The notes under the pieces were generated by a model, which was not told where the DNA came from, ran no database searches, and saw only the letters and a program-made list of their open reading frames with translations. From a virus (Duplodnaviria > Heunggongvirae > Uroviricota > Caudoviricetes), in IMG/VR virus record IMGVR_UViG_2690316276_000005: a DNA stretch of 41,514 bases; one strand, given 5' to 3'. Below are positions 1 to 39,642 of the stretch, in pieces; the stretch's first letter is position 1; every line of letters begins with the position of its first letter. Both the position numbers and the translations under genes were made by a program.

Positions 1-776
1 ACCTCGGTTTACGAGAACTCGGCACAAGCGGGGAGAAAATACCGTTACTCAGTACAGCGAATACCTGGACTAATCGACAAACATTCAGCGGTGGCCTTTC
101 TGGTGAACTATCCGGCAATGCTTCTACAGCTGCAAAATTAAAAACTGCCAGGAAAATAAGCAATGTGGCTTTTGATGGTTCCTCCGATATCACATTAAAA
201 GCAAGTCATGTTGGTGCGTTTGCCTTAGGGAAAACAGGAAGCACCGTTGCGAATGATAAAGCAGTTGGATGGAACTGGAGTAGCGGAGCCTATAACGCAA
301 CTATTAGTGGTGCATCAACGTTAATTATTCATTTTTATATGGGAGAAGGAAGTTGTCCTGCAGCTCAGTTTCGGATTAATTATAAAAATGGCGGTATTTT
401 TTATCGTTCAGCCCGTGATGGTTATGGTTTTGAAGCCGACTGGTCCGAATTTTACACCACCAGAAAACCTTCAGCAGGAGATGTTGGTGCACTGCCGTTA
501 TCTGGTGGTCAACTGAATGGTGCACTGGGTATCGGAACATCCAGTGCTCTTGGCGGTAATTCGATTGTATTGGGTGATAATGACACGGGCTTTAAACAAA
601 AAGGCGATGGTAATCTGGATGTTTATGCTAATAACGTCCATGTTATGCGCTTTGTCTCCGGAAGCATTCAAAGTAATAAAACCATAAATATTACGGGACG
701 TGTTAATCCCTCGGATTACGGTAACTTTGATTCCCGCTATGTGAGAGATGTCAGACTTGGCACACGAGTTGTTTAG
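1..776 (+). CDS. Tail-fibre protein, C-terminal variable region (partial; reading frame is open from the window edge, GTG at 165 is only the ORF-caller start)
   Basis: Frame 0 is open from position 3; translation ...NASTAAKLKTARKISNVAFDGSS... then [18 protein letters not shown], matching the P2 H / lambda Stf C-terminal family. Ends at in-frame TAG 774-776; homology continues in the same frame to 926. Confidence 0.8.
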   Translation, partial: LGLRELGTSGEKIPLLSTANTWTNRQTFSGGLSGELSGNASTAAKLKTARKISNVAFDGSSDITLKASHVGAFALGKTGSTVANDKAVGWNWSSGAYNATISGASTLIIHFYMGEGSCPAAQFRINYKNGGIFYRSARDGYGFEADWSEFYTTRKPSAGDVGALPLSGGQLNGALGIGTSSALGGNSIVLGDNDTGFKQKGDGNLDVYANNVHVMRFVSGSIQSNKTINITGRVNPSDYGNFDSRYVRDVRLGTRVV

Positions 777-928
777 ACCATGAAGAAAGGCGTGATGTAT
801 GAAAAATCAGGCCATGTAATCACGGGGCTTGGTATTATCGGTGAAGTCGATGGTGATGATCCGGCAGTATTCAGACCAATACAAAAGTTAATTAACGGAA
901 CATGGTATAACGTATCGCAGGTATAATC

Positions 929-1344
929 ATGCAGCATTTAAAAAACATTGTCGCAGGTAATCCAAAAACCGTTGAACAATACCAGCTAACAAAGAATTTT
1001 GATGTTATCTGGTTATGGTCCGAAGATGGAAAAAATTGGCATGAGGAATTAAAAAACTTTCAGGAGGATACAATAAAACTGGCTTACACAGTTGAGGGAA
1101 TAATTATTGCTATAGACAAGGATGTATCAGCAATTAATCCAGAAGGTTTAAGTGTCGTTGAGTTGCCTGATATTACAGCAAATCGCCGGGCTGATATTTC
1201 GGGCAACTGGATGTTCAAAGATGGTGCGGTGATAAAGCGAACTTATACCGAGGAAGAGCAAAGGCAACAAGCGGAAAATGAAAAGCAGAGCCTGCTGCAG
1301 CTCGTCAGGGATAAAACCCAGCTGTGGGACTCTCAGCTACAGNN
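929..1344 (+). pseudogene. tfa: Tail-fibre assembly protein (Tfa), 3' end truncated at IS boundary and NN
   Basis: [22 protein letters not shown]... is paralogous to the tfa ORFs at 2878 and 3647-4174. Starts 2 bp after the fibre stop. About 138 codons versus about 175-245 for the paralogs; abuts the IS left end at 1345. Confidence 0.75.
1343..1344. other. Ambiguous bases (NN) at IS left boundary
   Basis: Two N characters directly 5' of the IS terminal TGAGG. Confidence 0.95.
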
Positions 1345-1408
1345 TGAGGTAGCCTGAGTTTAACGGACACTCCTTCCTGAAATAGAATGGCATCAGAAGG
1401 AGCTAATA

Positions 1409-1711
1409 ATGAGCAGAAAAACCCAACGTTACTCTAAAGAGTTCAAAGCCGAAGCTGTCAGAACGGTTCTTGAAAATCAACTTTCGATCAGTGAAGGCGC
1501 TTCCCGATTATCTCTTCCTGAAGGCACTTTAGGACAATGGGTTACCGCCGCCAGAAAAGGGCTCGGTACTCCTGGTTCCCGCACGGTGGCTGAACTGGAA
1601 TCTGAAATTCTGCAACTGCGTAAGGCGTTAAATGAAGCTCGCCTTGAGCGAGATATATTAAAAAAAGCAACAGCGTATTTTGCACAGGAGTCGCTGAAAA
1701 ATACGCGTTAA
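1409..1711 (+). CDS. IS3-family transposase OrfA (HTH / leucine-zipper part)
   Basis: MSRKTQRYSKEFKAEAVRTVLENQ... is typical IS3-family OrfA. Confidence 0.85.
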   Translation: MSRKTQRYSKEFKAEAVRTVLENQLSISEGASRLSLPEGTLGQWVTAARKGLGTPGSRTVAELESEILQLRKALNEARLERDILKKATAYFAQESLKNTR

Positions 1712-1746
1712 TCGAACAATGGCGACAACAATTTCCCATTGAAGCG

Positions 1747-2565
1747 ATGTGTCAGGTATTTGGTGTATCCAGGAGCGGTTATTACAACTGGGTACAGCAT
1801 GAACCCTCAGACAGAAAACAAAGTGATGAGCGGCTAAAACTGGAGATTAAGGTGGCACATATCCGCACTCGCGAAACATATGGAACCCGGCGGCTCCAGA
1901 CGGAGCTGGCAGAGAATGGCATCATCGTTGGTCGTGACCGACTGGCACGTCTTCGTAAGGAGCTAAGGCTACGCTGTAAGCAGAAACGCAAGTTCAGAGC
2001 GACTACGAACTCGAACCACAATCTGCCAGTTGCGCCAAATCTGCTGAACCAGACGTTCGCTCCTACAGCACCAAATCAGGTCTGGGTGGCGGACCTGACG
2101 TATGTTGCCACACAGGAGGGATGGTTGTACCTCGCTGGCATCAAAGATGTTTATACGTGCGAAATTGTCGGCTACGCCATGGGAGAGCGCATGACAAAAG
2201 AGCTGACAGGTAAAGCCCTGTTTATGGCGCTCAGGAGCCAGCGCCCACCTGCCGGGCTAATCCACCACTCTGATCGAGGTTCACAGTACTGCGCATACGA
2301 TTACCGGGTCATACAGGAGCAGTCTGGTCTGAAAACATCAATGTCGCGTAAAGGTAACTGTTACGACAACGCTCCGATGGAAAGCTTCTGGGGAACGCTG
2401 AAAAATGAGAGCCTGAGCCACTATCGTTTTAATAACCGGGATGAAGCCATCTCAGTAATACGGGAATACATTGAGATTTTCTACAATCGTCAGCGTCGTC
2501 ACTCTCGTCTGGGGAATATCTCCCCGGCAGCCTTCAGGGAAAAATATCATCAGATGGCTGCTTAA
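1747..2565 (+). CDS. IS3-family transposase OrfB (DDE catalytic part; normally made as an OrfAB fusion by -1 frameshift)
   Basis: Integrase-core motifs (...WVADLTYV..., HSDRGSQY, ...NRQRRHSRLGNISP) in the frame that is -1 relative to orfA. Confidence 0.85.
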   Translation: MCQVFGVSRSGYYNWVQHEPSDRKQSDERLKLEIKVAHIRTRETYGTRRLQTELAENGIIVGRDRLARLRKELRLRCKQKRKFRATTNSNHNLPVAPNLLNQTFAPTAPNQVWVADLTYVATQEGWLYLAGIKDVYTCEIVGYAMGERMTKELTGKALFMALRSQRPPAGLIHHSDRGSQYCAYDYRVIQEQSGLKTSMSRKGNCYDNAPMESFWGTLKNESLSHYRFNNRDEAISVIREYIEIFYNRQRRHSRLGNISPAAFREKYHQMAA

Positions 2566-2608
2566 AAAAAGAACAAATGGTAGTGTCCGCTATTGCCAGT
2601 ACACCTCA

Positions 2609-2875
2609 GAGTTTTACACCACAACCCGCAAACCCTCTGCGGGAGATGTTGGTGCATATACGCAGGCAGAATGTAACTCAAGGTTTATTACAGGTATTCG
2701 CCTTGGTGGTCTGTTATCTGTTCAGACATGGAATGGTCCCGGATGGTCTGACAGGTCAGGTTATGTTGTTACCGGTTCCGTTAACTCAAACAGAGATGAA
2801 CTAATTGATACAACTCAGGCAAGGCCAATTCAGTATTGCATTAATGGGACGTGGTATAACGCGGGGAGTATTTAA
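2609..2875 (+). pseudogene. Tail-fibre C-terminal variable fragment (5' part missing, begins at IS right end)
   Basis: SEFYTTTRKPSAGDVGA...[16 protein letters not shown] parallels SEFYTTRKPSAGDVGA...INGTWYNV of the other fibres. The N-terminal part of ORF 2471-2875 is IS sequence. Confidence 0.7.
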
Positions 2876-2877
2876 CG

Positions 2878-3618
2878 ATGATGCACTTAAAAAACATTTC
2901 TGCTGGTAATCCTGAAACAAAAGAGCAATACCAGCTAACGAAACAATTTAACATCAAATGGCTTTATACAGAGGATGGGAAAAACTGGTATGAGGAACAA
3001 AAGAACTTTCAGCCTGATACGTTGAAAATGGTCTATGACCACAACGGCGTTATTATTTGTATTGAAAAGGATGTTTCAGCAATTAATCCGGAAGGCGCAA
3101 GCGTCGTTGAGGTTCCTGATATTACAGCAAATCGCCGGGCTGATATTTCGGGCAACTGGATGTTCAAAGATGGTGCGGTGATAAAGCGAACTTATACCGA
3201 GGAAGAGCAAAGGCAACAAGCGGAAAATGAAAAGCAGAGCCTGCTGCAGCTCGTCAGGGATAAAACCCAGCTGTGGGACTCTCAGCTACAGCTGGGCATC
3301 ATTTCNNNNNNNNNNNAGGTTCCTGATATTACAGCAAATCGCCGGGCTGATATTTCAGGTAAATGGATGTTCAAAGATGGCGTAGTGATAAAGCGAACTT
3401 ATACCGGGGAAGAGCAGAGGCAACAAGCGGAAAATGAAAAGCAAAGCCTGCTACAGCTCGTCAGGGATAAAACCCAGCTATGGGACTCACAGCTACGGCT
3501 GGGCATTATTTCCGACGAGAATAAACAAAAATTAACCGAGTGGATGCTCTATGCGCAGAAGGTCGAATCCACAGACACCTCCAGCCTGCCAGTAACGTTT
3601 CCCGAACAACCAGAATGA
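2878..3618 (+). CDS. tfa: Tail-fibre assembly protein (Tfa) with internal tandem duplication around an N-run
   Basis: [22 protein letters not shown]...; the block [60 protein letters not shown] occurs twice, separated by N 3306-3316. Confidence 0.7.
3306..3316. other. Assembly gap (11 N) inside tfa
   Basis: Run of N between two near-identical tandem copies. Confidence 0.95.
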
Positions 3619-3646
3619 AACAAGGCCCGATATCGGGCCTTAATTT

Positions 3647-4174
3647 TTACTCAGGCTTTTGTGGCCATTCTGGCTTTGCCGTATCCACACGGCTGACCAG
3701 AACACTGTAGCGTTCCCATGCTTCCAGTCGTGTGCGTTCCTCGTCTGTTGCCATATTCAGCCTGACAGCGCGTTCCAGCGGCTGGATGACTGATTCAGCT
3801 TCGGAAAGCAATGCGGCCTTTTGTGATTCGGCCTGTTGTTGCTGTTCGTCAGCCGTATAAATCCGTTTAACCACAGCTCCGTCCTTAAACATCCACTTAC
3901 CGGAATCATCAGCACGACGATTAGCTGTAATATCAGGAACCTCAACGACGCTATAACCTTCAGGGTTAAGCGTGGAGGCATCTTTGGTGATGGCGACAAT
4001 AATATTATTTGCATCGTAAACAATCTTTATTGTGTCTGGCTGAAAGTTCTTCACTTCCTCATACCAGTTTTTTCCGTCCTCAGAGTAAAGCCAGATGACT
4101 CCGTGCTTCTTTGTTAACTCATACTGCTCCACTGTTTTAGCATTACCTGCTTTTATGTTCTTTAAGTGCATCAT
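3647..4174 (-). CDS. tfa: Tail-fibre assembly protein (Tfa)
   Basis: [22 protein letters not shown]... paralogous to the plus-strand tfa copies. ATG lies 1 nt after the stf stop. The ORF-track extension to 4207 overlaps stf and is unlikely to be real. Confidence 0.85.
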
Positions 4175-4175
4175 A

Positions 4176-7079
4176 TTAAATACTCGCCACATTATACCAA
4201 GTGCCATTTATATACTTTTGCACTGGCCTGTAATGAACGCCTGCAATATTATCGGCAGAGTTTTTTCCGGTATCCTGTACGTTAATCCCCGTCAGTACAT
4301 AGCCTGACGGGCACTGAAAATTCCATGTTTGCCAGTTGTTCACTCCATAATATTGCTGTGAACCAAGTCGAACATCTTTCACATATCTGGAATCAAAATT
4401 GCCATAGTTGCCGGGAATAACTTGCGAGCCGCAAAGCCAGTTCCCGTTATTATCCATGTACGCCTGACCATCGGTGCCATTGGCTGTCCTTGAGTTATTA
4501 ATCATGTAGATGCCAAATTGCTTATTTCCCAGACCGCCAATCATAAATTTGCGGTCGGCATGGTCCTGACGGAGCAAAGCCTGAGCACCATCAGTGGATA
4601 CCGCATTACGTCCCAAAATAACATTCTGGTCACGCATATGAATCCACATGCCGGTACTACTGTTAATTGCAAAACGGTTTGCAAATATATCCCCTGTAAC
4701 ATCAAGACCATGCCCCATGCTTATCCGGCCAGTTCTGAGATTAAGCGTAAAGGGGCGTAGTGGCCCTATATTACCATTTTCCCCTTCATTCTCTCGTGTA
4801 GGGATGATATGCAGGCATTCTTCAGAACGACGAAAAATGGCACCAAAAGATGAATTAAATATCCTCAGTGCATTGACTGTCGATATTTTCACTTCACTGC
4901 TGAAAAGGGCTTCAACAAGAACAGACAAAGCATTCCATTTAAGATTCATCAGGTCTTTAGGCCGGGTGCCAATGATGCGGTGTCTCCATTTGAAATATTC
5001 ATTGCCGTTGTTGCCTGTTTCAAACCACATGTAGGAATCGGTGTCTGCATCCGAATTATTTTTAAACCCAATCTTTGCCCAGTCAGTATTTCGAATCCAG
5101 GCAAGGATTGAGTCGTTTTCAAAAGTAAGTCCACCGGACAACGTATCGCCATTTTTTTGCACGGCGTTACCAGCCTTGTTTACCGTTTCCTGTAAACCGA
5201 GGTATTCGATAACGGCGGCAACGGTCGATTTCGCAAGAATATCCCGCCCGACTTTTGTCAGGGTTGCCAGGCTGGCGACATCATTCCCCGTAAAATACGG
5301 AAACTTGCCTGCCGCAGTAGTAAGTCCGGCCAGCGCCGTCAGGGTGGCATCTTTCGGTTGCTTACCCGCAAGCGCGTTAGTCATGGTGGTCGCAAAATTC
5401 GGGTCGTTGCCCAGCGCCGCAGCCAGCTCGTTCAGCGTGTTCAGTGCATCAGGTGACGAATCTACAAGGGCGGCAATCGCAGCCATAACGAAAGCCGTGC
5501 TTGCGATTTGGGTATTATTCGTTCCCTGTCGCGCAGTTGGTGTTGTTGGCGTTCCGGTCAGTGCAGGACTATTTAAGGGCGCTTTCTTGTTCGTTTCACC
5601 CATTACCGCCTTAACCGCTTTTGGCGTTGCCGCCAGTGACTCGGAAGTGCTGTTGGTCGCACTGCTGAGCTGTACTATCCCCTTTTTCGTCGTGCTCGCA
5701 TCCTCAAGCGCCACGGCGGATGCAATATCCTCTGCCCGTTTTGCTGCTGTCTCGGCGCGCGTTGCCGCGGATTCAGCAGCAACTTTGCTCTGAGATGCAG
5801 CCGTCGCACTGCCTGCCGCCTCTGATGCTTTCGTTGTTGCTGTCGTGGCACTACCTTTCGCTGCTGACGCTTGTCTGGTCGCCTCATCTTTTGAAGCAGA
5901 CGCAGATGATGCCGATGACGCCGCTGAACTGGCTGACGATGCGGCTGCTGCCTTAGAGGAAGCAGCATTGTCTGCTGAAGTCTTTGCATTTGTTTCAGAG
6001 GTTTTTGCTGCAGAAGCAGACCTCGCTGCTGCAGTGGCTTGCTCAGTGGCTTTGCCAGCCTTCGTTGTGGCTGTTGAAGCGGATGATGCGGCGCTTTCTG
6101 CCGATTTTCCGGCGGCGGTGGCACTGGCTGAGGCCTGCCCGGCACTTGTTGACGCGGCGCTGGCAGACGACGCAGCCGCTGTTTTTGAGCCTGCCGCAGC
6201 TGAGGCACTCTGTCCCGCTGCCGTTTCAGAAGACCTGGCGTTCGTCTCGGACGTTTTGGCCGCCTTCGCAGAATTTGCAGCCGCCGTCGCCGAGGAAGCT
6301 GCGCTACTGGCGCTTGATGATGCGTTCGTTTCTGATGATTTTGCCGCCTCTTTTGAAGCCGACGCATCCCGGGCTGAGGTGGCAGCTTCTGACGCTTTCG
6401 TGGTCGCGGTGGATGCAGAAGTGGCTGCTGATTGTTGTGACGCTGCCGCATTCGTTTCTAACGTTTTCGCCGCACCGGCACTGGTAGCCGCCGCGCTTTT
6501 TGAGGACTCTGCAGCGGCAGCACTTTTTGAGGCTTCAGTGGCCTTTGTTGATGCCGTTCCTGCGCTGGAAGACGCTGACTGAGCCGACGAAGCGGCCTGT
6601 CCGGCTGACGTGCTGGCTGCACGTGCTGAATCTGCAGCATCAGTCGCATGGGTTGCCGCCTCACGGGCTGATGTGCTGGCATCGCTGGCTGATTTCTTCG
6701 CGGCTGCCGTGTTCTGTGCCACCGCGGACGCGTTACGCGCCACCTCTTCCACCATCAGCTCAAAACGGCGCAGTGCCTCCGGACGGGCATCATCCTCCGT
6801 CATGGCACCGAGAAAATCATTCAGCGTACCGGGTCGGGAATCTTCATACACGGTGATGGTCCCGGCATGTGACGGCGGGAATCCTTCCACCAACAGAATA
6901 ACGCTGTACTGACCGTACTCAACGTCCATGCTGTAACGCCCGGCTTCATCCGGATTTTCTGAGGCCAGCGTGTTCACCACCACCGTGGTGCTGTTACGTT
7001 TTGCTTTCAGCTGGATTGTGCAGTTCTGTACCGGTTTTCCTGTGCCGTCTTTCAGTACACCTGAAATCTTTACTGCCAT
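4176..7079 (-). CDS. stf: Side tail fibre protein (lambda Stf-like N-terminus, long Ala/Ser/Thr-rich repeat region, P2 H-like distal part)
   Basis: N-terminus [26 protein letters not shown]... as in lambda Stf; central low-complexity A/S/T repeats; then [33 protein letters not shown]...[10 protein letters not shown]... shared with the P2-H-like fragment at 15804-16594; ends ...[13 protein letters not shown]. True ATG at 7077-7079 (ORF track starts at GTG 7085). Confidence 0.9.
5187..5212. other. Gin/Hin/Cin/Pin-family crossover-like site (imperfect dyad) inside stf
   Basis: TTCCTGTAAACC GA GGTATTCGATAA: two 12-bp imperfectly inverted half-sites around a 2-bp core, resembling the Mu gix site as recalled. 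The reverse complement of window positions 1-17 (TTCTCGTAAACCGAGGT) matches it 15/17. Both lie at the EYLGL codons. Confidence 0.45.
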
Positions 7080-7115
7080 ATTCACCCCACAAAAAAGCCC
7101 GCCTGAACCGGCGGG

Positions 7116-7116
7116 N
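7116..7116. other. Single ambiguous base (N) at contig-like junction
   Basis: N within the hairpin just upstream of the stf start, at the start of an inverted duplication. Confidence 0.95.
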
Positions 7117-7272
7117 TGGTTCAGCGCGTATGCGATGGCGGGTGTGGCTTACAGCCGTGTGTCGACTTTTTCCGGGGATTATATCCGCGTAACTGACAAT
7201 AAGGGGAAAACGCACGATGTGCTGACCGGAAGTGATGACGGTCGCCACAGCAACACGTCTCTGGCGCACTGA
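7117..7272 (+). pseudogene. lom 3' fragment (inverted relative to intact lom)
   Basis: Plus-strand translation WFSAYAMAGVAYSRVSTFSGDYIRVTDNKGKTHDVLTGSDDGRHSNTSLAH matches an internal segment of the intact Lom at 8817-9416 (minus). Confidence 0.6.
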
Positions 7273-7334
7273 CGGTTTCATCGTGGGTGTCGGTTATAAA
7301 TTCTGATTAGCCAGGTAACACAGTGTTATGACAG

Positions 7335-7740
7335 CCCGCCGGTTCAGGCGGGCTTTTTTGTGGGGTGAATATGGCAGTAAAGATTTCAGGTGTACTGAAA
7401 GACGGCACAGGAAAACCGGTACAGAACTGCACAATCCAGCTGAAAGCAAAACGTAACAGCACCACGGTGGTGGTGAACACGCTGGCCTCAGAAAATCCGG
7501 ATGAAGCCGGGCGTTACAGCATGGACGTTGAGTACGGTCAGTACAGCGTTATTCTGTTGGTGGAAGGATTCCCGCCGTCACATGCCGGGACCATCACCGT
7601 GTATGAAGATTCCCGACCCGGTACGCTGAATGATTTTCTCGGTGCCATGACGGAGGATGATGCCCGTCCGGAGGCACTGCGCCGTTTTGAGCTGATGGTG
7701 GAAGAGGTGGCGCGTAACGCGTCCGCGGTGGCACTGGCTG
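7335..7740 (+). repeat. Inverted duplicate of the stf upstream hairpin and first ~123 codons
   Basis: 7335-7367 is the reverse complement of 7085-7115. 7371 onward encodes [10 protein letters not shown]...[11 protein letters not shown], identical to the N-terminus of the minus-strand stf. At about 7740 the sequence switches to a minus-sense stf copy, so ORF 7365-8189 is chimeric. Confidence 0.7.
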
Positions 7741-8665
7741 AGGCCTGCCCGGCACTTGTTGACGCGGCACTGGCAGATAATGCAGCCGCTGTTTTTGAAC
7801 CTGCCGCAGCTGAGGCGCTCTGTCCCGCTGCTGTTTCAGAAGACTTAGCGTTCGTCTCGGACGTTTTTGCCGCCTTCGCGGAATTTCCTGCCGCCGTTGC
7901 CGAGGAAGCTGCACTACTGGCACTTGATGATGCATTCGTTTCTGAAGATTTCGCTGCCTCTTTTGAGGCCGCCGCACCCCGTGCCGAGGTGGCAGCTTCT
8001 GACGCCTTCGTGGTCGCTGTGGATGCAGAAGTGGCTGCCGATTTTTGTGATGCTGCGGCATTCGTTTCTGACGTTTTCGCGGCACTGGCGCTGGTAGCTG
8101 CCGCGCTTTTTGATGACTCTGCAGCAGCACTTTTTGCTGCTTCACGGGCCTTTGTCGATGCCGTTCCTGCGCTGGAAGACGCTGACTGAGCCGACGACGC
8201 GGCCTGTCCGGCTGACGTGCTGGCGGCACGTGCTGAGGCTGCAGCATCGGTTGCATGAGTTGCCGCCTCGCTGGCTGATTTTTTCGCGGCTGCCGTATTC
8301 TGTGCAACCGCGGAGGCGTTACGTGACACCTCTTCCACCATCTGCTCAAAGCGGCGCAGTGCCTCCGGTCGGACATCATCCTCCGTCATGGCACCGAGAA
8401 AATCATTCAGCGTACCTGGTCTGGAACCTTCATAGACGGTAATGGTCCCGGCATGTGAAGGCGGAAAACCTTCAACCAGCAGGGTGACGCTGTACTGACC
8501 ATGCTCAACATCCATGCTGTAACGTCCGGCTTCATCCGGATTTTCAGAGGCCACCGTGTTCACCACCATCGTGCTGCTGGTTCGTCTGGCCTTCAGCACA
8601 ATGGTGCAGTTCTGTACTGGTTTTCCTGTGCCATCTTTAAGCACGCCAGAAATTTTTACTGTCAT
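7740..8665 (-). pseudogene. Second stf 5' copy (about 308 codons, diverged paralog), truncated at the inverted-duplication junction
   Basis: [58 protein letters not shown]... then A/S/T repeats. Roughly 90 percent similar at protein level to the stf N-terminus, with a DNA direct repeat of about 6115-7079. Confidence 0.65.
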
Positions 8666-8816
8666 ACTTTTCCACCAATAAAAAAAGCCCGCAGCAGTGA
8701 CGCCACGGGCTTCAGGACAGTGTAACTTTACGTTTCCTCAAACGCAGTTCACCCCATAAGGTGGATGAACCTGCGTATCATAACAATATTTACAGAAGAT
8801 AAATCGGCGTCTGTTG

Positions 8817-9416
8817 TCAGATACGGTATCCGATACCAACAATAAATGCATCCGTTCGCCAGTCACCACTACCGGAACCTTCATAAGCAAGGTCAATGGT
8901 CACGGATTCGGTCGGGTTAAACTGCACGCCAGCCCCCCACGCCAGAGACGTGTTGCTGTGGCGACCGTCATCACTTCCGGTCAGCACATCGTGCGTTTTC
9001 CCCTTGTTGTCAGTTACGCGGAGATAATCCCCGGAGAAAGTCGACACACGGCTGTAAGCCACACCCACCATCGCATACGCGCTGAACCATTCATTCACGC
9101 GTACAGACGGCCCCGCCATCACGCTGAACCAGCGGTTACGCACGGAATCTTCATGCCAGCGGGTATCGCTGTAGTGCGTTTTTTGCTCATCCTCAGCATT
9201 GGCATAACTGAAGGACGTAATCAGCCCCAGCGCGTCCGTAAACTCATAACGGTATTTCACGTTAATCCCGTTCAGATTATCGCTGCCGGGAGCGTTCGTA
9301 CGGGCATGAAGATACCCCGCGCTCAGTGTGGACTGATGTTCAGACGCCCATGCAGGCGCACCGGATACGGCCAGGCAAATGGCTGCGGACAAAATGGCTG
9401 CACAAACTTTACGCAT
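8817..9416 (-). CDS. lom: Lom-like outer membrane protein (Ail/Lom/OmpX family)
   Basis: Signal peptide MRKVCAAILSAAICLAVSGAPAWA; beta-barrel body ending ...AFIVGIGYRI; sits between J and stf as in lambda. Confidence 0.9.
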   Translation of the reverse strand: MRKVCAAILSAAICLAVSGAPAWASEHQSTLSAGYLHARTNAPGSDNLNGINVKYRYEFTDALGLITSFSYANAEDEQKTHYSDTRWHEDSVRNRWFSVMAGPSVRVNEWFSAYAMVGVAYSRVSTFSGDYLRVTDNKGKTHDVLTGSDDGRHSNTSLAWGAGVQFNPTESVTIDLAYEGSGSGDWRTDAFIVGIGYRI

Positions 9417-9440
9417 AATTACCTCTCGCTTTTCTGCAAT

Positions 9441-9464
9441 AAAAAAGGCGCCATTTCTGGCGCC
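9441..9464 (-). terminator. Rho-independent terminator-like hairpin downstream of J
   Basis: On the minus strand GGCGCC-AGAAAT-GGCGCC followed by a T-run; lies between J stop and lom start. Confidence 0.5.
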
Positions 9465-9483
9465 CGTATATGGGTTATAAAAT

Positions 9484-12400
9484 TCAGCTGATACTGATGC
9501 CTGCGGTGGCTTTCTTCATCACCACAACCAGCAAATCGCTGATACTTGCTGTGGGATACCAGTTATTCACCAGCCATGCTGACACCGAAAACTCCAGCGT
9601 CATGTGGCCGCGACCAGCTGGCATATCAATAACACCACTGTAAATCAGCGTATTATCCAGCGCGGTACGGTTATAAATTTCAGCACCGTTTTTCCGTACT
9701 ATCAGGCGGCATGACGAATAAATATCGTTATTCTCCCGCTCATGTTTAGCGCCGCTGAATGCCACCGCCGGAATAACAATTTGCCTGTCAAAAGGCTGAT
9801 CGTCATAAATCCTGACGGTAATGGTCCCTGATGGCCACCGCTCCGGTGCCCGGGAGTCCCGCGGAAAAGCCTTACCCACTGTTTTGACTATATCGCCTTC
9901 AATCTGGTTGGCTGACAGTTTCCCCTTAATCTGACAGTTCTCATTAATTGTGACATTGTTGAGCGTCCCGGCGTTCGCATTCACACTGCCACTGATATCT
10001 GCATTTTTAGCGGTCAGTTTTCCGTCCGGTGTCAGGGAAAATGCCGGAGGATTACCGCCGCTGGTAATGGTGGGAGCCGTCAGGCGTTTCAGGAACACGT
10101 CGTTCATGAATATCTGATCGCCCTGACCAACAAACATCGGCTTTGTGTTGCCATTCGCAGGATTAATCATCGCAATCCTGTCTGCCGCCAGCAGCACCTG
10201 ACTCTGCATTCCTGCTGGCGTATTCTCAATACCGGCACCGATACCCGCAATATAAAGGCGTCCGTCCTTCATCTGTTGCAGCTTCACAGCCCACATGCTG
10301 TTCAGATTATTATTTGTATCAACCTGAACCTTCTGTATCTGCTGGATTGCCGCACTCTGGTCTTTCAGTTTCTTATTGACAGTCTGCGTGATTTCATTGC
10401 TGACATCCGTAATGGACGTCCTGATTTCAGCCAGGTCAGGCGCAAGCTGACCGTTATCAATCTGCGTCCACAGCTCCTGAGCCAGATGTGTTTTCCCTAT
10501 CTCTCCTTTGAAAAAATCCAAGTAACCTTCCGCATCATCGCTCGCCCGACCGACAGCCTCCACGAATGCCGATTTGCCAACGGTGTTCACACTGCGAACG
10601 TAAAAATAATAATCATGGCCCGGTTTGATATTGATACTGGCGGCTATCCAGTACAGCGCCGTGCCAAGATAGCGTGCTGTGGTTTCAACCTGCCTGATAT
10701 CCGCAATCCGCTTTTCCGAGAACCAGAACTCAAACTGTACCGTCGGGTCATAAACGGCAAGATGCGGCGTTGCGGTTATCTGAAAATAGCCCGGCGTCAG
10801 CTCAATCCGCGACAGCGCTGCCGGTGCGGCAATCCGGAACGATACCGACGCCGGATCGCCCTGCTGCCCCCACGCATTTACTGCCCGGACTGTCAGCCTG
10901 TAGTTCCCCAGCGCCAGTTGTGTGAAGCGGTAAGTGGTTTCCGTCGTCCGGGCCGTGCTGACCAGCCGCTCACTGCCGTCATCCGCTGTTACGGTCAGAC
11001 GGAGCAGGAAGCTCACGCCCTTCACCACCTTCGGCGTGTCCCAGCGCGCCAGCACCTGATATTCCCCGCTGTCTGCGGTGACTTCGGCAGTCAGGTGCTG
11101 CACCGCTGGCGGCGTGACACCATTCACCGTGCCGCTCTGGTCGCCGTCAAAGTGCGCCCCGTTATCCACGATGGCTTCTTTTTCCGGCACATGCTGCACG
11201 GCGGTGATGGCATACGTGCCGTCGTCGTTCTCACGGATACTCACGCAGCGGAACAATCGCTGGTGCAGCGTCGGCAGCTTCAGCCCCCACACGCTGTATT
11301 CAGCAACACCGTCAGGAACACGGCTCACTTTTACCTTCACGCCGTCGGTGACGGACTGGACCTCCACGCTGACCGGATTCCCCTGCCCGTCAACCAGGCT
11401 TATCAGCGTGGTGCCGGAGGATGGCAGCGTGATTTCACGGTCGAGCGTCAGCGTCCGGGTCTGGCTGTTCACCGCCAGCACGCGCCCGCCGGTGCGGATA
11501 CCGGCATAGTCATCATCGCAGATTTCAATGACATCGCCCGGTACATGACGAAGCCCTTCAGCACCCACGCTGAAATCCACGGTCTGCGTCTCCAGCAGTT
11601 CCGTTTTAATCAGCCACAGCCCGGCGCGGTGTGCCTGCCCCCGGCTGGTACAGCCAAAGGCATCCATCTTCGTGACGTTACGACCGTAACGGACAATGGC
11701 CTGCGTATCCTCCACAAGCTCTGTCGCCGTCTCCCAGCCGTTATCCGGGTCAATCCAGTTCACCTCAACGGCATTATGGCGGTCTTTCAGGGCGCTGAAA
11801 CTGTAGCGGAACGGCGCGCCATCATCCGGCATCACCACATTACTGCGGTTATAGGCCCACACCTTATCCGACTGTCGGTCCTGCACGAACGTCAGCGTCT
11901 GCCCGTTCCATACCGGCATACAGCGCATCGCCGAGCAGAAATCACTGAGCACATCCCACGCCTTGCGCTGTGTGGTCAGCCAGGCATTACAGGTGATGCG
12001 CGGCTCCGTGCTGCCAAAGCCGTCCGGCACCGACTGGTCACAGTACTGGCCGATGACATACAGCGCCCATTTATCCACATCTGCCGCACCAAGACGTTTC
12101 CCCATGCCATAGCGCGGATGGGTCAGCATATCCCACAGACACCAGGCCATGTTGTTGCTGTATGCCGGTTTTAACGTTCCGTCCCAGATACCGCTGTATT
12201 GCCGCGTCTGCGGATTATAGTTCGACGGCACCTGCAGAATGCGCCCGCGAAGATGATAATTACGGCTCACCTGCTGGCTGCCGAACTGCTCCGAATCCAC
12301 CTGTACGCCGACCAGTGCCGTGTTCGGGTAGCACTGTTTCACATCGATGATTTCGGTGTATGACGACCAGAGCGTTTTGTTCTGCAGCTGGTCTGTGGTG

Positions 12401-12963
12401 CTGTCCGGCGTCATTCTGCGCATCCGGATATTAAACGGGCGCGGCGGCAGGTTATCCACCACCACCGAGGCCAGATACTGCGAGGTGGTTTTGCCCTTAA
12501 TGGTGATGTCTTTTTCCGTCACCCAGCCACCGTTACGCTGTATCTGAACCAGCAGGCGAACTTCAGACGGATTCCTGTCTCCCTTTGAGGTGGTTTCCAC
12601 CAGTGCCTGTACACCGAAGGTAAAACGCAGTCGGTCAATGTTTGCCGACGTGATGGTCCGGGTGATCGGCGTGTCATATTTCACTTCCGTACCCAGCACC
12701 GTCTCGGAGCCGGAGGATTCAAATCCCTCCGGCGGTGACTGCTCCTGCTCACCTGCCCGGAACACCACCGTGACGCCGGAGATGTTGGTATTCCCCTCAC
12801 TGTCCAGCACCGGCGTACTGTTCAGCAGCACGCTTTTTAATCCATCCACCGGACCTTCAACCGGCCCTTCGCTGATGGCATCGATCACACTCAGCAGCTG
12901 CGTGGACTTCAGGTTGTCCTTCGCTTCGCGCGGGGTATGCCCCTTACTGCTGCCTTTACCCAT
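9484..12963 (-). CDS. J: Tail tip / host specificity protein J (central tail fibre)
   Basis: 1159 aa; [54 protein letters not shown]... is collinear with lambda J as recalled. Confidence 0.95.
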
Positions 12964-13023
12964 TCGTCATGCTCCATAAACGATAAAACCGCCCGGAGGC
13001 GATTTCACATAAAACATTTTGCA

Positions 13024-13695
13024 TCAGCGACCAATCACCACAACCTGACCACCGTCCCCTTCGTCTGCCGTGCTGATCTCCTGAGATACCACACGTGACC
13101 CCACGCGCATTTCACCATACAGAACAGGCATAACATTGCCCTGGGCAACCATGTTATCCAGTGAGGAGAAATAGATGTTCTGCTTACCGTTATCCGTTGT
13201 CTGTGTGCGGGGAGTTCTGGCTTTCGGTGCCAGCATCTGAGCCACACCGCCGAGCACCATACTGGCACCGAGAGAAAACAGAATGCCGGTCATACCACCG
13301 GCACCAATGGCAGCCCCCCATGCTGCAAGGGTGGCTCCGGCGGTAAAGAATGATCCGGCAATGGCGGCTGCTCCCAGGACAATCTGGAATACACCACCTG
13401 ACTTGGCCCCGGCGACTCTGGGAACAATATGAATCACAGCGCCGTCAGGCAGAGCCTCATGTAACTGCGCCGTTAATCCGGACGTGCTAACATCCTGCCC
13501 GGCAATACGCACCTGATACCAGCCGTCGCTCAGCTTCTGACGAAACGCAGGGAGCTGTGTGGCCATCGCCCGGATGGCTTCGGCACCCGTTTTCACACGA
13601 AGGTCGATGCGGCGGCCAAATCGTTGCAAATCCCCGTAAAGGCAGATGCGTGCCATGCCCGGTGACGCCAGAGGGAGTGTGTGCGTCGCTGCCAT
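13024..13695 (-). CDS. I: Tail assembly protein I
   Basis: 223 aa, MAATHTLPLASPGMARICLYGDLQRFGRRIDLRVKTGAEAIRAM... resembles lambda I; position after K. Confidence 0.88.
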   Translation of the reverse strand: MAATHTLPLASPGMARICLYGDLQRFGRRIDLRVKTGAEAIRAMATQLPAFRQKLSDGWYQVRIAGQDVSTSGLTAQLHEALPDGAVIHIVPRVAGAKSGGVFQIVLGAAAIAGSFFTAGATLAAWGAAIGAGGMTGILFSLGASMVLGGVAQMLAPKARTPRTQTTDNGKQNIYFSSLDNMVAQGNVMPVLYGEMRVGSRVVSQEISTADEGDGGQVVVIGR

Positions 13696-14336
13696 TTGTC
13701 GGTATACCTCTCTCGTTTGCTCAGTTGTTCAGGAATATGGTGCAGCAGCTCGCCGTCACCACAGTAAATGGCGGCATGATTCGGCACCGATGAACCAAAA
13801 CAGCACAGCAGCACATCGCCCGGCTGCGCCGCTGACAACGGCACCTGATACAGCCCTGTGGCCTCCAGATTATCCAGATAGAGATTCTGACCGTGACGCC
13901 ACCAGTCATCCTCACGATGAAAATCCGGCATCTCAATCCCCGCCAGATGGTAAGCATCCCGGAACAGCGTGTAACAGTCCGTCACCCCGTGCTCAAAGCG
14001 CCGCCCGGTAAGATGTGGCACACAGCGGAACTTGTGAATCGCCCCCCGGCAGACCAGCCACCACGGCAAATCACTCTGCACCTGCAGCCGCCGGTCGGCC
14101 TCACTCAGCCAGGGCAGACCACCGGGGTGGCTGTGGACCAGTGCCACAATCTCACCCTGCATCTCTGCCTGCAGCCAGTCTTCCGGCGACATACGGAAAT
14201 ACGCCTCCGGCTCACCGGAGATATTCACGCAGGGGAAATATCTTTCCCCCTCCGGCGTTCTTACCACGAAGCCGCACGACTCCGCTGGAGCACATCGCCG
14301 GGCGTGCGCCAGAATCGCTGATTCTGTCTCTGTCAT
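13593..14336 (-). CDS. K: Tail assembly protein K (MPN/JAB plus NlpC/P60 domains)
   Basis: MTETESAILAHARRCAPAESCGFVV...HSHPGG (JAB motif) ...DCYTLFRDAYH (NlpC/P60 Cys). The ORF as drawn overlaps I by about 100 bp; the true 3' end is uncertain. Confidence 0.85.
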   Translation of the reverse strand: MTETESAILAHARRCAPAESCGFVVRTPEGERYFPCVNISGEPEAYFRMSPEDWLQAEMQGEIVALVHSHPGGLPWLSEADRRLQVQSDLPWWLVCRGAIHKFRCVPHLTGRRFEHGVTDCYTLFRDAYHLAGIEMPDFHREDDWWRHGQNLYLDNLEATGLYQVPLSAAQPGDVLLCCFGSSVPNHAAIYCGDGELLHHIPEQLSKRERYTDKWQRRTHSLWRHRAWHASAFTGICNDLAAASTFV

Positions 14337-14341
14337 GGGAT

Positions 14342-15040
14342 TTACTGCGAAAGTTTGTTAATGGAAAGGAAGCCGCCAAAGTTGCCGACGTTATTGCGAA
14401 ACTTACAGCCACTCAGGCATTTGCTGCATTTATCCTTCGTGATGTCGGACGTTGGCTGGTCATATTCATCCGCGACCGCCGGACCGTGATAACCGCACTC
14501 ATCGCCGCGATAGGTCCAGGTGCAGGTGTTGGCCAGCATGATACGTCCCGGAAAAACAGCGCCATCTGTTTCCGTCGGCGTGGACAGTACAAAAGAGGCA
14601 CTCACCGCGCTCAGTTCGCTGCACTGCTCAATGCGCCAGCGGCTGATCACCTCCTGCTCCGGATCGGCGTCACTGTTTCCGTTGACGAAGTTCACCGCAT
14701 CCAGAAAACGGGCGTAAACCTTACGCCGGACCACCGTTCCGCCGACCAGACTCTGTAGATCTTCCGCCATCCCGGTGACCATACCGTACAGGTTAGAAAC
14801 CATCAGCGTGGGGCGCGTACTGGTGCCTTTGCCATTCAGTTCAAAACCACTCCCCTGAATGGGATACGGCTGATACTGTCGCCCCTGCCAGGTGACCGGC
14901 TCACCTTTTTCGTTCTGCTCATTACAGAAAAAATAACGTTCTCCACCGACCTCTGTCAGATCGATTTCCCAGAGCACCACGCTGGCCGACTGCTCCGCAC
15001 GGGTGCATTCATTCAGTGTTTCCTGCCGGATATCCTGCAT
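14342..15040 (-). CDS. L: Minor tail protein L
   Basis: 232 aa, MQDIRQETLNECTRAEQSASVVLWEIDLTEVGGERYFFCNEQNEKGEPVTWQGRQY... lambda L-like. Confidence 0.9.
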   Translation of the reverse strand: MQDIRQETLNECTRAEQSASVVLWEIDLTEVGGERYFFCNEQNEKGEPVTWQGRQYQPYPIQGSGFELNGKGTSTRPTLMVSNLYGMVTGMAEDLQSLVGGTVVRRKVYARFLDAVNFVNGNSDADPEQEVISRWRIEQCSELSAVSASFVLSTPTETDGAVFPGRIMLANTCTWTYRGDECGYHGPAVADEYDQPTSDITKDKCSKCLSGCKFRNNVGNFGGFLSINKLSQ

Positions 15041-15369
15041 CAGTTCACCACCTGTTCAAACTCTGCGCTGAACTCAACACGCAGCATACTGACCCGCGAC
15101 GACCATTTTGCGCAGGTCACCTTTATCTGCCGCCACTCATAAGGCGGCGTCCACAGAAAGGCTTTCCAGCCCCCGTGCTCTTCCAGAAACGACTCCAGTA
15201 CCATGGCCTCCTCACGGGGGACAGAAAGCGTCACGCTGTACGTTTTCAGGTTGGCATTCAGCCCGGCAGGCGCTCGCTGGGAATAGCCATCACCAAAGCG
15301 CACCTTTCTTACAGAAGGGGCCGAAGCCACATCCATACCGGGTTTCACTTTCCAGCGGAAGGTTTTCAT
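15040..15369 (-). CDS. M: Minor tail protein M
   Basis: 109 aa, MKTFRWKVKPGMDVASAPSVRKVRFGDGYSQRAPAGLNANLKTYSVTL... lambda M-like. Confidence 0.9.
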   Translation of the reverse strand: MKTFRWKVKPGMDVASAPSVRKVRFGDGYSQRAPAGLNANLKTYSVTLSVPREEAMVLESFLEEHGGWKAFLWTPPYEWRQIKVTCAKWSSRVSMLRVEFSAEFEQVVN

Positions 15370-15792
15370 CGTCCACCTCCGGAGAACTGGCCACCATCAC
15401 GCATCTGTGTCTGAATTTCATCACGGGCACCCTTGCGGGCCATGTCATACACGGCCTTCATCATCTGTGGACCTGGCAGACCATTCGTACCGTCGTTCTG
15501 AATCACCACGTGATTGTTCTGATTAAAATTAATGCCTTCAGCCCGCCGCATCTGCGCCGGACTTCCGGCACCGCCCACATAACCACCTTCCGCATAGCCG
15601 CGCATCAGCCGGTAGAGATTCCCCACGCCAATCCGGCTGGTTGCCTCCTTCGTGAAGACAAATTCACCACGGTGAACAATCCCCGCTGGCTCATATTTGC
15701 CGCCGGTTCCCGTAAATCCCCCGGTTGCAAAATGGAATTTCGCCGCAGCGGCCTGAATGGCTGTACCACCTGACGCGGATGCGCCGCCACCA
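15369..15792 (-). pseudogene. H: Tail tape-measure protein H, C-terminal fragment only (cut by the N gap)
   Basis: The frame is open from the gap to the stop; it ends ...MRDGGQFSGGGR and overlaps the M start as in lambda. Only about 140 codons are present of an expected roughly 850. Confidence 0.7.
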
Positions 15793-15803
15793 NNNNNNNN
15801 NNN
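15793..15803. other. Assembly gap (11 N) joining lambda-like and P2-like modules
   Basis: N-run; the flanking sequence on the P2 side (15804-16080) is a near copy of stf 5421-5700. Confidence 0.95.
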
Positions 15804-16594
15804 GCCAGCTCGTTCAGTGTGTTCAGTGCATCAGGCGAAGAGTCTACAAGTGCGGCAATCGCAGCCATAACGAAAGCCGTGCTTGCGATTTGGGTATTAT
15901 TCGTTCCCTGTCGCGCAGTTGGTGTTGTTGGCGTTCCGGTCAGTGCCGGGCTGTTTAATGGGGCTTTCTTGTTCGTTTCATCCATTACTGCCTTAACGGC
16001 TTTTGGTGTCGCTGCCAGCGTTTCAGACGTGCTGTTGGTGGCGTTGCTGAGCTGGACAAGGCCTTTTGCGGTCAGCGAGGCGTCCGGGTGACGTCGTGAC
16101 TGTTCATGCTCTTTCAGTTTGTCATCCACGTAATTCACTGTGGCCATCACCATGGTGTTATCCACGGTAAGCGCCACAGTGGCAGTGCTGGATACGGTCA
16201 GAATGGTGCGAAATGTTTGTGCACGTCCGGATCCTTCGGCAACGGTTGGCTTGTAACTTTCGGCAGTATTGCCTACCGCGATCAAATCGCCGTGCTCATC
16301 AAACACACCAATTTCCCGGATCCAGAATCCGCCCGTTTCAGGAGGAATAACCAGCTCCGCAATAATGTGGTTCTGATGTGTTGCGTCCAGGGTGACGCGA
16401 TTAACGGTATGTCGCCACACCTCATGCACAAGACGGGTCTGCTTACTGTCTGGCGTGGGTAAAGTACCGCCGCCGTCACCCACGGCCATATGTGTCAGGC
16501 GGACAGGTTTCCCATCTGGCGCGGTTGCCTGCGCTAATTTTTTTGCACCCGTATCGGTGATAATGGTTTTAAATTTTCGTGTTGTGGTACTCAT
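15804..16594 (-). pseudogene. P2 H-like tail fibre, N-terminal portion only (cut by the N gap)
   Basis: MSTTTRKFKTIITDTGAKKLAQATAPDGKPVRLTHMAVGDGGG...ELVIPPETGGFW...YVDDKLKEHEQSRRHPDASLTAKG...[11 protein letters not shown] then gap. Directly follows baseplate gene I as in P2. The tail of ORF 15605-16594 beyond the gap is an out-of-frame reading of H. Confidence 0.75.
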
Positions 16595-19580: not shown

Positions 19581-20040
19581 CGCTTTCCCCCCACGTCACA
19601 TCCTGGAATACATGCGACCAGTCGCCTTCGGAAGAGGGCAGGCGGGGTTTTGGCTCCGGCAGGTGTTCTGCCTGCGGTGTGCCCTGACTGCTGCGCGTGA
19701 TGCGAACGCGTTCCCGCAGGGGGAGCGTAAACAGGAGATCGGCGCTGTCATCGTCATTGATAACGGCGGAAAATTTGATGTCCTGATTACGCTCCGGATT
19801 GAGCAACAACTGTGGCTGATTTTCGGATAACCACGCCAGCAGCGGCAGCGTGAGGTCGTCCAGCTCTCCGGCGTAATCCATGACAAACATCACTATCTGA
19901 TAGCGGTAAACAAACGATGGGGTTTCTCCGGTCGTTTCAATGTTGCCGCTCTCCACGAAAATGGTGAATTTTTCCGGGTTGGCATGACACCACCGGCATG
20001 AACGGGTCATGGCTTCACGCAGGGAATCAGTTTTCAGCAT
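19573..20040 (-). CDS. Tail completion protein (P2 gpR-like)
   Basis: 155 aa, MLKTDSLREAMTRS...FTIFVESGNIET...LPLLAWLSENQP... resembles P2 gpR in length and N-terminus. Confidence 0.75.
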   Translation of the reverse strand: MLKTDSLREAMTRSCRWCHANPEKFTIFVESGNIETTGETPSFVYRYQIVMFVMDYAGELDDLTLPLLAWLSENQPQLLLNPERNQDIKFSAVINDDDSADLLFTLPLRERVRITRSSQGTPQAEHLPEPKPRLPSSEGDWSHVFQDVTWGESDG

Positions 20041-20347
20041 GGTTGTTGTCCTCGTTGTTCAGTCGTTGCAGCCTGCGCTGTTCCAGTAATTCAATGGCCC
20101 GCTTATCGGCGTTACAGGTTTCCAGTGCGTCCATGAGGCTGTCGCTCCATATCCCGATGTTTCCCCATGATGGCGTCACCGGAAACGGCGGGGGAAGTAC
20201 GGGGGCGGTCAGCCCTTCCGGGATGAAACGGAACGACGGCGGCGGCGCGGACGCGTTCTGCGTGCTGGTGCAACCGCTCAGTAAAGCGAGCGTCAGGAAC
20301 AGCGCGGGCACATGCATCTGTCGTGATATCGTTGCGTAGCTGTTCAC
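20027..20347 (-). CDS. Outer-membrane spanin lipoprotein (LysC / Rz1-like), partly embedded in the i-spanin gene
   Basis: Lipobox LLSGC after a signal sequence, Pro-rich mature part, out-of-frame overlap with 20112-20585. Confidence 0.6.
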   Translation of the reverse strand: MNSYATISRQMHVPALFLTLALLSGCTSTQNASAPPPSFRFIPEGLTAPVLPPPFPVTPSWGNIGIWSDSLMDALETCNADKRAIELLEQRRLQRLNNEDNNHAEN

Positions 20348-20585
20348 GTCGGATTTCCCCTTCCTGTTGTCGGTTCTGGCGCGCTGTCATGACGTCACGC
20401 AGTACACCGGATGCGGTGCTGATGATGGTGCCGGCCTCTTTCAGGGTCCGGCTGTAATCGTCCAGTTGCGCCTGTGTATAACGGTTGTGTCCGTCTTCCT
20501 GCCCCAGTCTGAATGTCTGCCAGAGTGTTATGGTCAGCAGCGTGAGGACGGTCAGTGCCATCATCAGGATGTAACGCACTTTCAT
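20112..20585 (-). CDS. Inner-membrane spanin (LysB / Rz-like)
   Basis: N-terminal TM (MKVRYILMMALTVLTLLTITLW) followed by a charged helical region; sits between endolysin and R. Confidence 0.6.
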   Translation of the reverse strand: MKVRYILMMALTVLTLLTITLWQTFRLGQEDGHNRYTQAQLDDYSRTLKEAGTIISTASGVLRDVMTARQNRQQEGEIRREQLRNDITTDACARAVPDARFTERLHQHAERVRAAAVVPFHPGRADRPRTSPAVSGDAIMGKHRDMERQPHGRTGNL

Positions 20586-29734: not shown

Positions 29735-30694
29735 TTACTCCTTGTCCATTGCGTACAGCCCATTAACCAGAGCAAACTGTGGCACCCCGTCCGCGATGAA
29801 AGTCGCATTAACTCCGCAGGCTTCGCGGATAGCGGGTGCCACAATCTCCGCCCCTCCACCGACAACCATCACCCGCCCGTAACCCGAAAAACCCGCCAGC
29901 GCGCGGATCACGCGTTGTTTCAGTGTTTCTTCCTTTTCACGAATAACCGCCATCAGGCTGGCGTAATGCGCGTCATTGTGGATGTGCTGGCGCAGCCAGG
30001 CTTCATCATGGCGATGTTCGATAATGGTATTGGCGATGTGGTGACTGGTGCGCATACCGTTAGTGGCCATCACCGACAGTACGGCATCGGCCATCAGAGA
30101 AACGCCTACGTGTGGATCGCAAAACACCTGGCTGATACCTGCCAGTTGCCCCTGAACCTTTGCCACATCCAGCGTGGTTCCGCCCAAATCCACAATCAGC
30201 AGGGATTCAAACGGACTCATGTCAGCCAGTGCCTTAAAGCCAGCCGGAATGGATTCAGGCATAACCCGCACGTTACGGATAGTGAATGCTTCGCCGTTCT
30301 GGTACTCCACCGGGCGCATAACGTTCGCTTTTTTGCGGTTGATGTTGGCCATGTCCGGCTGTGCGTTTGTGTCGAAATACTCGCTCAGTGGCAGGGTGAC
30401 AACCACATCCACCTCCTGTGGCGTGATGCCTGATTTGACCAGCGCGTGATGAATGGCAATGACATTTACATCGCTGTACTGGTATTGCGTGTCGGTTGTC
30501 TGGACAAAGCGATCGCTGACCGGATCAAAACCATAGCGCACGCCATCAAGCATGTAGTTCGCGGGCTGCATGCCACCGAACGGCGCAGACCATTCCGACT
30601 TGAAGCTGTTCGGGCTGATGGCGTTGCGGCGTTCGCCGTTCTCAGTCCATGCCAGCTTGATGTTGGTGGAGCCGTCGTCGATACAAATTTTCAT
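29735..30694 (-). CDS. ParM/StbA-like actin-fold ATPase
   Basis: [35 protein letters not shown]... parallels R1 ParM [21 protein letters not shown]...ISPNSFKREW; also ...[13 protein letters not shown]... and ...[12 protein letters not shown]... phosphate/adenosine motifs. Confidence 0.85.
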   Translation of the reverse strand: [319 protein letters not shown]

Positions 30695-36339: not shown

Positions 36340-36388
36340 TCATGGAACGCTGGGGGCATGGTGGTCTTGTAACGCTGGGGCTTCACGA

Positions 36389-39580: not shown

Positions 39581-39642
39581 CCGCAAAAAGACGGTCTATG
39601 ATTAAAAGCTAAGATTTTTACTGACCACACCCAGGAGAAACG

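Follow-up and report, generated by a model that had tools for sequence, protein, structure and literature searches.

A putative Gin/PinB-type tail-fibre inversion site in a mis-scaffolded prophage contig of the Escherichia/Shigella type

The window analysed here, a stretch of 41,514 nucleotides, is the entire draft contig CXBB01000028.1 (41514 bp, assembly GCA_001254295.1), and the window edge is a true contig end. There are four runs of undetermined bases in the sequence (1343–1344, 3306–3316, 7116, and 15793–15803), and the window is therefore a scaffold rather than one continuous stretch of assembled DNA. The features found in it are listed in Table 1. They comprise tail genes of a lambdoid prophage, a P2/P88-like prophage, several alternative tail-fibre ends with their chaperone genes, and an IS600 element. 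The source genome is of the Escherichia/Shigella type and rich in IS600.

Table 1. Features of the window, with positions counted from its first letter
Feature	Position	Strand	Remarks
Second site copy, incomplete	1..17	-	reverse complement TTCTCGTAAACC GA GGT; the contig ends here
Parts of the second copy	1-17		variable half-site 6-17; core 4-5; first 3 nt of the outer half-site at 1-3
Cassette A, alternative fibre C-terminus	1..776	+	starts with LGLRELGTSGEK
tfaA, chaperone of cassette A, first 414 nt	929..1342	+	stops at the NN scaffold join
IS600 (IS3 family)	1345..2608	+	left join is NN
Cassette C, 3' end	2609..2875	+	cut off by IS600; window 2606-3305 corresponds to L003 11362-10663, 98%
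tfaC, chaperone of the opposite cassette	2878..3618	+	contains the N gap 3306-3316
tfaB, tail fibre assembly chaperone for cassette B (PF02413)	3647..4174	-	
Cassette B, variable C-terminal receptor-binding end	4176..5186	-	99.7-99.9% to the P2-like prophage cassette of closed Shigella genomes
Proximal recombination site	5187..5212	.	identical to bixL
Parts of the proximal site	5187-5212		variable-side half-site 5187-5198; crossover dinucleotide GA 5199-5200; constant-side half-site 5201-5212
Lambdoid stf, constant N-terminal part (PF08400 phage_tail_N)	5213..7079	-	
Lambdoid tail genes M, L, K, I, J, lom	7117-15792		
P2/P88-like prophage	15804-41514		99.9% to closed Shigella-type genomes; from H back to the integrase and chromosomal btuCED
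P2/P88-like H, constant N-terminal part	15804..16594	-	stops at the N gap 15793-15803

The contig is a mis-scaffolded draft in which the tail region of a lambdoid prophage is tangled with a P2/P88-like prophage. The H gene of the latter ends about 207 nt before its own recombination site, and the segment needed to complete it is absent from its proper place. The stretch 2606–5216 is collinear with the invertible segment that closed Shigella and E. coli genomes have in their P2-like prophage (98–99.7% identity), and the 175-aa TfaB protein encoded in it recurs unchanged in the P2-like prophages of numerous genomes (601 blocks in the collection). The final ~115 nt of stf ahead of the site are identical to the P2-like H. 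A tangle extends over approximately 6716–8700, where the start of stf is repeated in inverted orientation without a mismatch over 403 nt and another stf allele is present, and the gap inside tfaC is flanked by a 196-nt imperfect duplication. The 3-nt flanks of IS600 (CAG and GAG) misfit one simple insertion. Exact look-ups of the Stf and J products found none beyond the window contig, and a look-up with Lom for the lambdoid prophage in closed genomes returned the sister drafts only.

Positions 5187–5212 read TTCCTGTAAACCGAGGTATTCGATAA. The minus-strand codons across the site are ATC GAA TAC CTC GGT TTA CAG GAA (IEYLGLQE), within a 967-aa tail-fibre ORF. In an alignment of tail fibres divergence begins directly past the site, which lies in frame at the switch point between the constant and variable parts. 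The imperfect dyad of two 12-bp half-sites described in the initial annotation is present, with 7 of 12 positions agreeing between the half-sites by manual count. Comparison with known sites gave identity at all 26 positions to the published bixL of Shigella boydii PinB, TTCCTGTAAACC GA GGTATTCGATAA (Din-family site list, Table 3, PMC3241671, from which both the bixL and bixR reference sequences were taken). The agreement with gixL and gixR of phage Mu, cut from AF083977 at the annotated G-segment boundaries, is 24/26 with both mismatches in the constant-side half-site, and there are five mismatches to P1 cixR and eight to e14 pixL. The proposal of the initial annotation, a Gin-family (Gin/Din) crossover site where a tail-fibre gene passes from constant to variable, stands; its concern that the half-sites might fall beyond the tolerated consensus of the family is removed by their exact match to a known active site.

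The site therefore combines two imperfectly symmetric 12-bp half-sites, a 2-bp core, and a match to a known site. Its surroundings are those of a fibre switch, with an in-frame site at the boundary between a constant N-terminus and alternative C-termini, and with opposed pairs that each consist of a fibre end and its own tfa. The pattern shared by the two copies in the window, TTCNNGTAAACCGAGGT, occurs in exactly 2 places in the 41.5 kb and in none of 100 dinucleotide-preserving shuffles, and the full 26-mer family pattern occurs once in the window compared to 0 expected. The exact 26-mer is present in more than 120 prophage contigs. A scan of one genome per species yielded 0 matches to the exact proximal site, and its absence from these species representatives is taxonomically uninformative. 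Judged by its sequence, the segment 5187–5212 is a genuine copy of the already described Gin/PinB-type tail-fibre inversion site.

The reverse complement of positions 1–17 is TTCTCGTAAACCGAGGT. It matches the proximal site at 15 of 17 positions in inverted orientation (inverted pair I19), as the initial annotation had stated, and the GA core is common to both copies. Two further statements about this copy fared less well. Weak similarity was said to extend about 25 bp further into the constant side; over those 25 nt 7 positions agree, as expected by chance, and the stretch belongs to the cassette, hence to the variable side, since the edge copy breaks off with the contig 3 nt beyond the core and has no constant-side sequence. 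Both copies were also placed at the codons of a conserved EYLGL motif, which is correct for the proximal site, whereas the edge copy has the codons for LGL(RE) alone, without EY.

Window 1–1342 (cassette A and tfaA) matches at 100% the silent distal cassette that sister drafts L024, L026, and L027 have in their lambdoid prophage, and this prophage adjoins the same lom and J genes as the one in the window. In the sister drafts the site of cassette A continues as TTCTCGTAAACCGAGGTTTTAGATAA, which gives the full form TTCTCGTAAACC GA GGTTTTAGATAA, and beyond it lie an invertase stump and a methyltransferase gene. The sister-draft layout is also found in E. coli NCTC86, but with cassette A fused to stf. 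The inverted partner that the initial annotation saw at the window edge is thus real as an inverted copy, but the window's two copies probably do not bound one and the same segment, as the scaffold mixes two prophages, P2-like at 2606–5216 and lambdoid at 1–1342. The edge copy is joined to the rest of the window solely via the NN and IS600 joins, and the two sites may not be paired physically.

The contig ends after GGT, which is the exact base where the constant-side (ATTCGATAA) and invertase-side (TTTAGATAA) continuations part, and three unrelated IMG/VR contigs (L081, L091, and L096) stop at the same base. Such an end is what an assembler produces when the reads support both continuations. 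Both would be supported if the culture contained the two orientations side by side, or if the cassette were present in duplicate; NCTC86 has such an A/A' pair, with both flanks identical over at least 45 nt.

A tblastn search with Gin and the P2-like invertase detected no invertase gene in the 41.5-kb window, and a blastn search of the window gave no match to the invertase-side flank, GGTTTTAGATAAtggc. In the closed P2-like relatives, the distal site TTCCTGTAAACC GA GGTTTTAGATAA is bixR at 26 of 26 positions, the flank past it closely resembles the sequence upstream of Mu gin, and directly beyond it lies the gene for an intact 195-aa protein with Resolvase and HTH_7 domains. It shares 85.6% of its residues with Gin, 77% with PinE, and 73.5% with Cin. 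Nucleotides 19–90 of its gene are identical to Mu gin at 72 of 72 positions, in a stretch that corresponds to the annotated enhancer of P1 cin. Sister draft L021 carries bixR together with an intact invertase gene (19832–20499), and phage P88_4B11 shows the same arrangement with the gene annotated as ‘Phage DNA invertase’. According to the initial annotation, a genome devoid of any invertase would refute the crossover site; this contig has none, but close relatives and a sister draft carry an intact one next to the same segment. In the lambdoid relatives (NCTC86, ETEC6, strain 504838, the sister drafts, and IMG/VR loci) the neighbouring invertase is always a stump of 60–64 aa.

Comparisons among relatives show the segment in both orientations. 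In the P2-like locus L003, H continues into cassette C and the invertase has cassette B next to it; in L008 and L014, also P2-like, the cassette order is reversed, with the change of flank inside the 26-mer. Among the lambdoid prophages, the gap-free sister contig L027 has stf fused to cassette X with cassette A at the distal site. Its flanks are collinear with those of IMG/VR locus L118 (99.4% and 99.7% identity), while the 2950 nt between the sites are inverted (99.76%). When the X/A segment of the sister drafts was searched for in closed E. coli genomes, no place covered at least 80% of the query. In a set of 56 loci with both sites, the cassette pairs 8/A, 2/4, 2/6, B/2, and 4/9 were present in both orders, truncated-invertase loci included, and the segment between the sites measured 2.65–3.3 kb, with two longer outliers reaching 4.1 kb. 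P2-like prophage fibre segments have been reported to flip continuously in E. coli cultures (PMC4272514). Because near-identical prophages hold the segment both ways, with breakpoints within the sites, their sequences indicate that such sites do recombine in nature. The two orientations were seen in relatives and not in this strain, where the switch may be active.

These results lead us to propose, with a probability of roughly 0.85, that the 26-mer is the promoter-proximal, bixL-type site of a host-range switch driven by a serine invertase of the Gin/Hin/Cin/Pin (‘Din’) family, and that two such switches are tangled in this contig. In the Gin, Cin, and Pin systems, invertase dimers at inverted sites act together with a Fis-bound enhancer on supercoiled DNA, and cleavage at the site centre is followed by strand exchange and inversion. 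By the same scheme, the invertase would bind two inverted sites, cut at the central GA, and rotate the strands, and a 2.6–3.3 kb segment with two back-to-back pairs of fibre C-terminus and chaperone would be flipped. Either C-terminus could then be joined in frame to the constant N-terminal part of the fibre at the IEYLGLQE codons. The expected outcome is replacement of the receptor-binding C-terminus and its chaperone, and with it a change in the tail-fibre host range of the prophage. One switch would be the B segment of the P2/P88-like prophage, with cassettes B and C (2609–5212) and, in closed relatives, an intact invertase just past the distal site. The other would be the segment of the lambdoid prophage with cassettes X and A, represented in the window by 1–1342, where the relatives’ own invertase is a 60-aa stump.

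It is possible, although rather unlikely in our judgment, that the site is frozen in this strain, kept for coding the conserved IEYLGLQE after the invertase or the distal site was lost or disrupted by IS600. Phage Wphi provides an example of such a state, as its H gene contains a 24/26 relic of the site, TTCCTGCAAACCGAGATATTCGATAA, with a single cassette and without an invertase. The initial annotation names P2 H as another gene with such a relic but no inversion. Among 26 informative IMG/VR loci (those whose downstream sequence runs on for 3.7 kb or more past the site), six have the exact 26-mer with neither a distal site nor an invertase. Since it is found without them, the 26-mer is also kept simply as coding sequence, and the Wphi relic together with the exact 26-mer contigs that lack a distal site bear out the earlier caution that sequence alone does not prove activity. 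The absence of an invertase from the contig and the consistent truncation of the invertases in the lambdoid neighbours fit a frozen site as well. Moreover, IS600 lies within the outer half of bixR in the closed Shigella genomes L004 and L005 and truncates cassette C in the window; because IS600 is found in the distal site of several closed Shigella genomes and cuts a cassette here, the switch may be damaged in this strain. The opposed cassettes and the second site copy, on the other hand, are still present, sister draft L021 has an intact invertase with bixR, and both orientations occur even at loci with truncated invertases. The contig also stops where two possible junctions diverge, as expected from reads that support both, or from two copies of the cassette.

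The fusion of lambdoid stf to cassette B raises a separate question, namely whether the scaffold is literally right and represents one 5.2-kb invertible lambdoid region with cassettes A, truncated C, and B plus IS600, in which the fusion is true. Such a fusion is biologically possible, since 25 closed E. coli genomes have lambdoid stf fused to B-like cassettes (~92% identity), followed by an inverted tfa and cassette and then an invertase stump. Segments with multiple cassettes are likewise known, given segment lengths up to 4.1 kb among the 56 two-site loci and a three-repeat P2-like locus on record (PMC4272514), which we count in favour of a literal reading. We nonetheless consider this reading unlikely. 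The 967-aa product of the fusion is found in the window contig alone in the whole protein collection, and exact cassette B occurs elsewhere only with the P2-like H and a full invertase. The stretch 2606–5216 matches the P2-like segment at 98–99.7%, and the H gene of the same scaffold misses exactly that part. A SNP 12 nt from the site is of the P2 type (G), whereas the sequence from ~115 nt upstream is of the lambdoid type, and the homologous stf contig of the sister assembly breaks at the window-equivalent position 5278. In gap-free sister contigs the stf gene adjoining lom is the other allele (start at window 7538–8665), fused to cassette X with cassette A distal. The mismatch between the two flanks of IS600 also argues against an undisturbed region. 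Judging from these sequence comparisons, the fusion of lambdoid stf to cassette B may be an assembly chimera.

Still less probable, in our view, is that the fusion is real and arose from recombination between the sites or the flanking homology of two prophages in one chromosome. If true, it would mean that unrelated prophages trade receptor-binding modules, and a large rearrangement of the chromosome would come with it.

A chance inverted repeat without biological meaning is practically negligible as an explanation of the 15/17 match: further 17-nt inverted pairs with 88% complementarity exist in the first 9.5 kb (I20 and I21), but the identity to bixL, a published active site, the shuffled sequences, and the inverted twins L027 and L118 rule it out, and both copies lie at fibre constant/variable junctions.

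The PinB system with its invertible B segment in Shigella boydii (GenBank D00660) was reportedly described by Tominaga, Ikemizu, and Enomoto in 1991. The window site agrees with its bixL, and the distal site of the closed P2-like relatives and of L021 with its bixR, at all 26 positions. Unlike the B segment, the contig is without pinB and bixR, and the site is drawn inside a lambdoid stf in what is possibly a chimera. The resemblance to the G segment of Mu extends from the 24/26 site, with an identical variable half-site and GA core, to the first ~45 nt of cassettes B and C, which resemble Sv and Sv', and to the relatives’ invertase, 85.6% identical to Gin with an identical enhancer-equivalent stretch. 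However, the fibre has a constant part like that of P2 H / lambda Stf instead of Sc, and the backbone is P2/P88-like or lambdoid. The C segment of P1 has the same layout; the edge half-site TTCTCG is similar to TTCTCT of cix, and the start of cassette A, LGLRELGTSGEK, is similar to the Sv start, whereas the cix core is AA instead of GA and the invertases are 73.5% identical.

The P segment of e14 with Pin, considered along with PinQ and PinR of E. coli K-12, is likewise an invertible fibre segment in a defective lambdoid-type prophage, but the pix sites are more distant (8 mismatches in pixL, with an AA core). The H gene of Wphi shares the constant region (91.5% over 316 nt) and has its 24/26 relic at the same codons. 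It differs in having a single cassette, one tfa (G), and no invertase, whereas the window contains opposed cassettes and a second copy of the site.

Tail-fibre switches of the Gin/Cin/Pin/PinB type have been known for decades. The element is thus an already known one, correctly identified within a mis-scaffolded draft contig, and the value of the identification lies in annotation and assembly. The site marks break and mis-join points in short-read Escherichia/Shigella assemblies, because the site and ~115–450 bp of constant region are common to the P2-like H and lambdoid stf, and because cultures can mix orientations. It would be unwise to take the 967-aa ‘stf’ product predicted from this contig for a real protein.

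The lambdoid switches keep intact sites and occur in both orientations with an invertase stump only, which points to dependence on the invertase of a different prophage. Cross-prophage action of this kind, with a P2-like invertase working for a lambdoid segment left with a stump of its own, would have a precedent in PinQ, which inverts the P segment of a prophage other than its own (PMC12529663). As the sites are the same, we infer that the P2-like invertase may flip the lambdoid segment in trans.

By its four N-joins (window positions 1343-1344, 3306-3316, 7116 and 15793-15803), the contig is a scaffold, with 11 N forming the join between the P2-like prophage and the lambdoid tail region, and its gene order should not be trusted. 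The features concerned are listed in the table below. The second N-terminal allele of the side tail fibre gene stf is 86–90% identical to the first and is cut at 7725 in the window. Gap-free sister contigs show that this second allele is the real neighbour of the window's lom and J, with 100% identity over window positions 7725-10596.

Duplicated, fragmentary and P2-like features of the scaffold
Feature	Window position	Strand
Second stf N-terminal allele	7538-8665	-
Inverted duplication of stf start (perfect, 403 nt)	6716-7118 vs 7332-7734	
lom fragment	7117-7266	
Imperfect duplication across gap in tfaC (196 nt)	3110-3305 vs 3317-3512	
Genes in and beside the P2-like prophage (ParM-like actin, gpA, integrase; chromosomal btu and NlpC/P60 genes)	29735-30694, 30771-33593, 36239-37366, 38600-41485	

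The integration site of the P2-like prophage is marked by its integrase, which adjoins chromosomal btuC, btuE and btuD and an NlpC/P60 gene. In the same prophage, the ParM-like actin gene adjoins the gpA replication gene.

Three unrelated IMG/VR contigs (L081, L091 and L096) terminate at the same base of the recombination site as the window does (...AAACCGAGGT), and this base is a recurrent breakpoint of short-read assembly. The constant region upstream of the site contains a tail-fibre motif (window ~5386-5459). Over 240 Mycobacterium phages have minor tail genes that match a 59–74-nt stretch of it, with 80–90% nucleotide identity (for example, Bxb1 2936-2994). For a motif shared across phyla, this DNA-level conservation is unexpectedly high.

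The IS600 copy in the window is not a simple insertion, as its 3-nt flanks differ (CAG vs GAG, at 1340-1345 and 2606-2611) and it adjoins the chaperone gene tfaA, across NN, on one side and an internal point of the alternative fibre end, cassette C, on the other. Its context reflects either an IS-mediated rearrangement or a scaffold join. In two closed Shigella-type genomes, the site next to the invertase has IS600 inserted in its outer half (GGTT|TGAGGTGTACTGG; L004 12038-12063, L005 8963-8988), and yet the invertible segment has opposite orientations in the two genomes. Either the identical insertion arose twice or inversion still occurred after insertion.

In the lambdoid versions of the switch (L001, L019, L020, the sister drafts L026 and L027, the IMG/VR contig L118 and IMG/VR loci), the invertase is always a stump of 60–64 amino acids, the sites are intact and both orientations are found among them. 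This combination suggests that the lambdoid switch depends on the invertase of another prophage.
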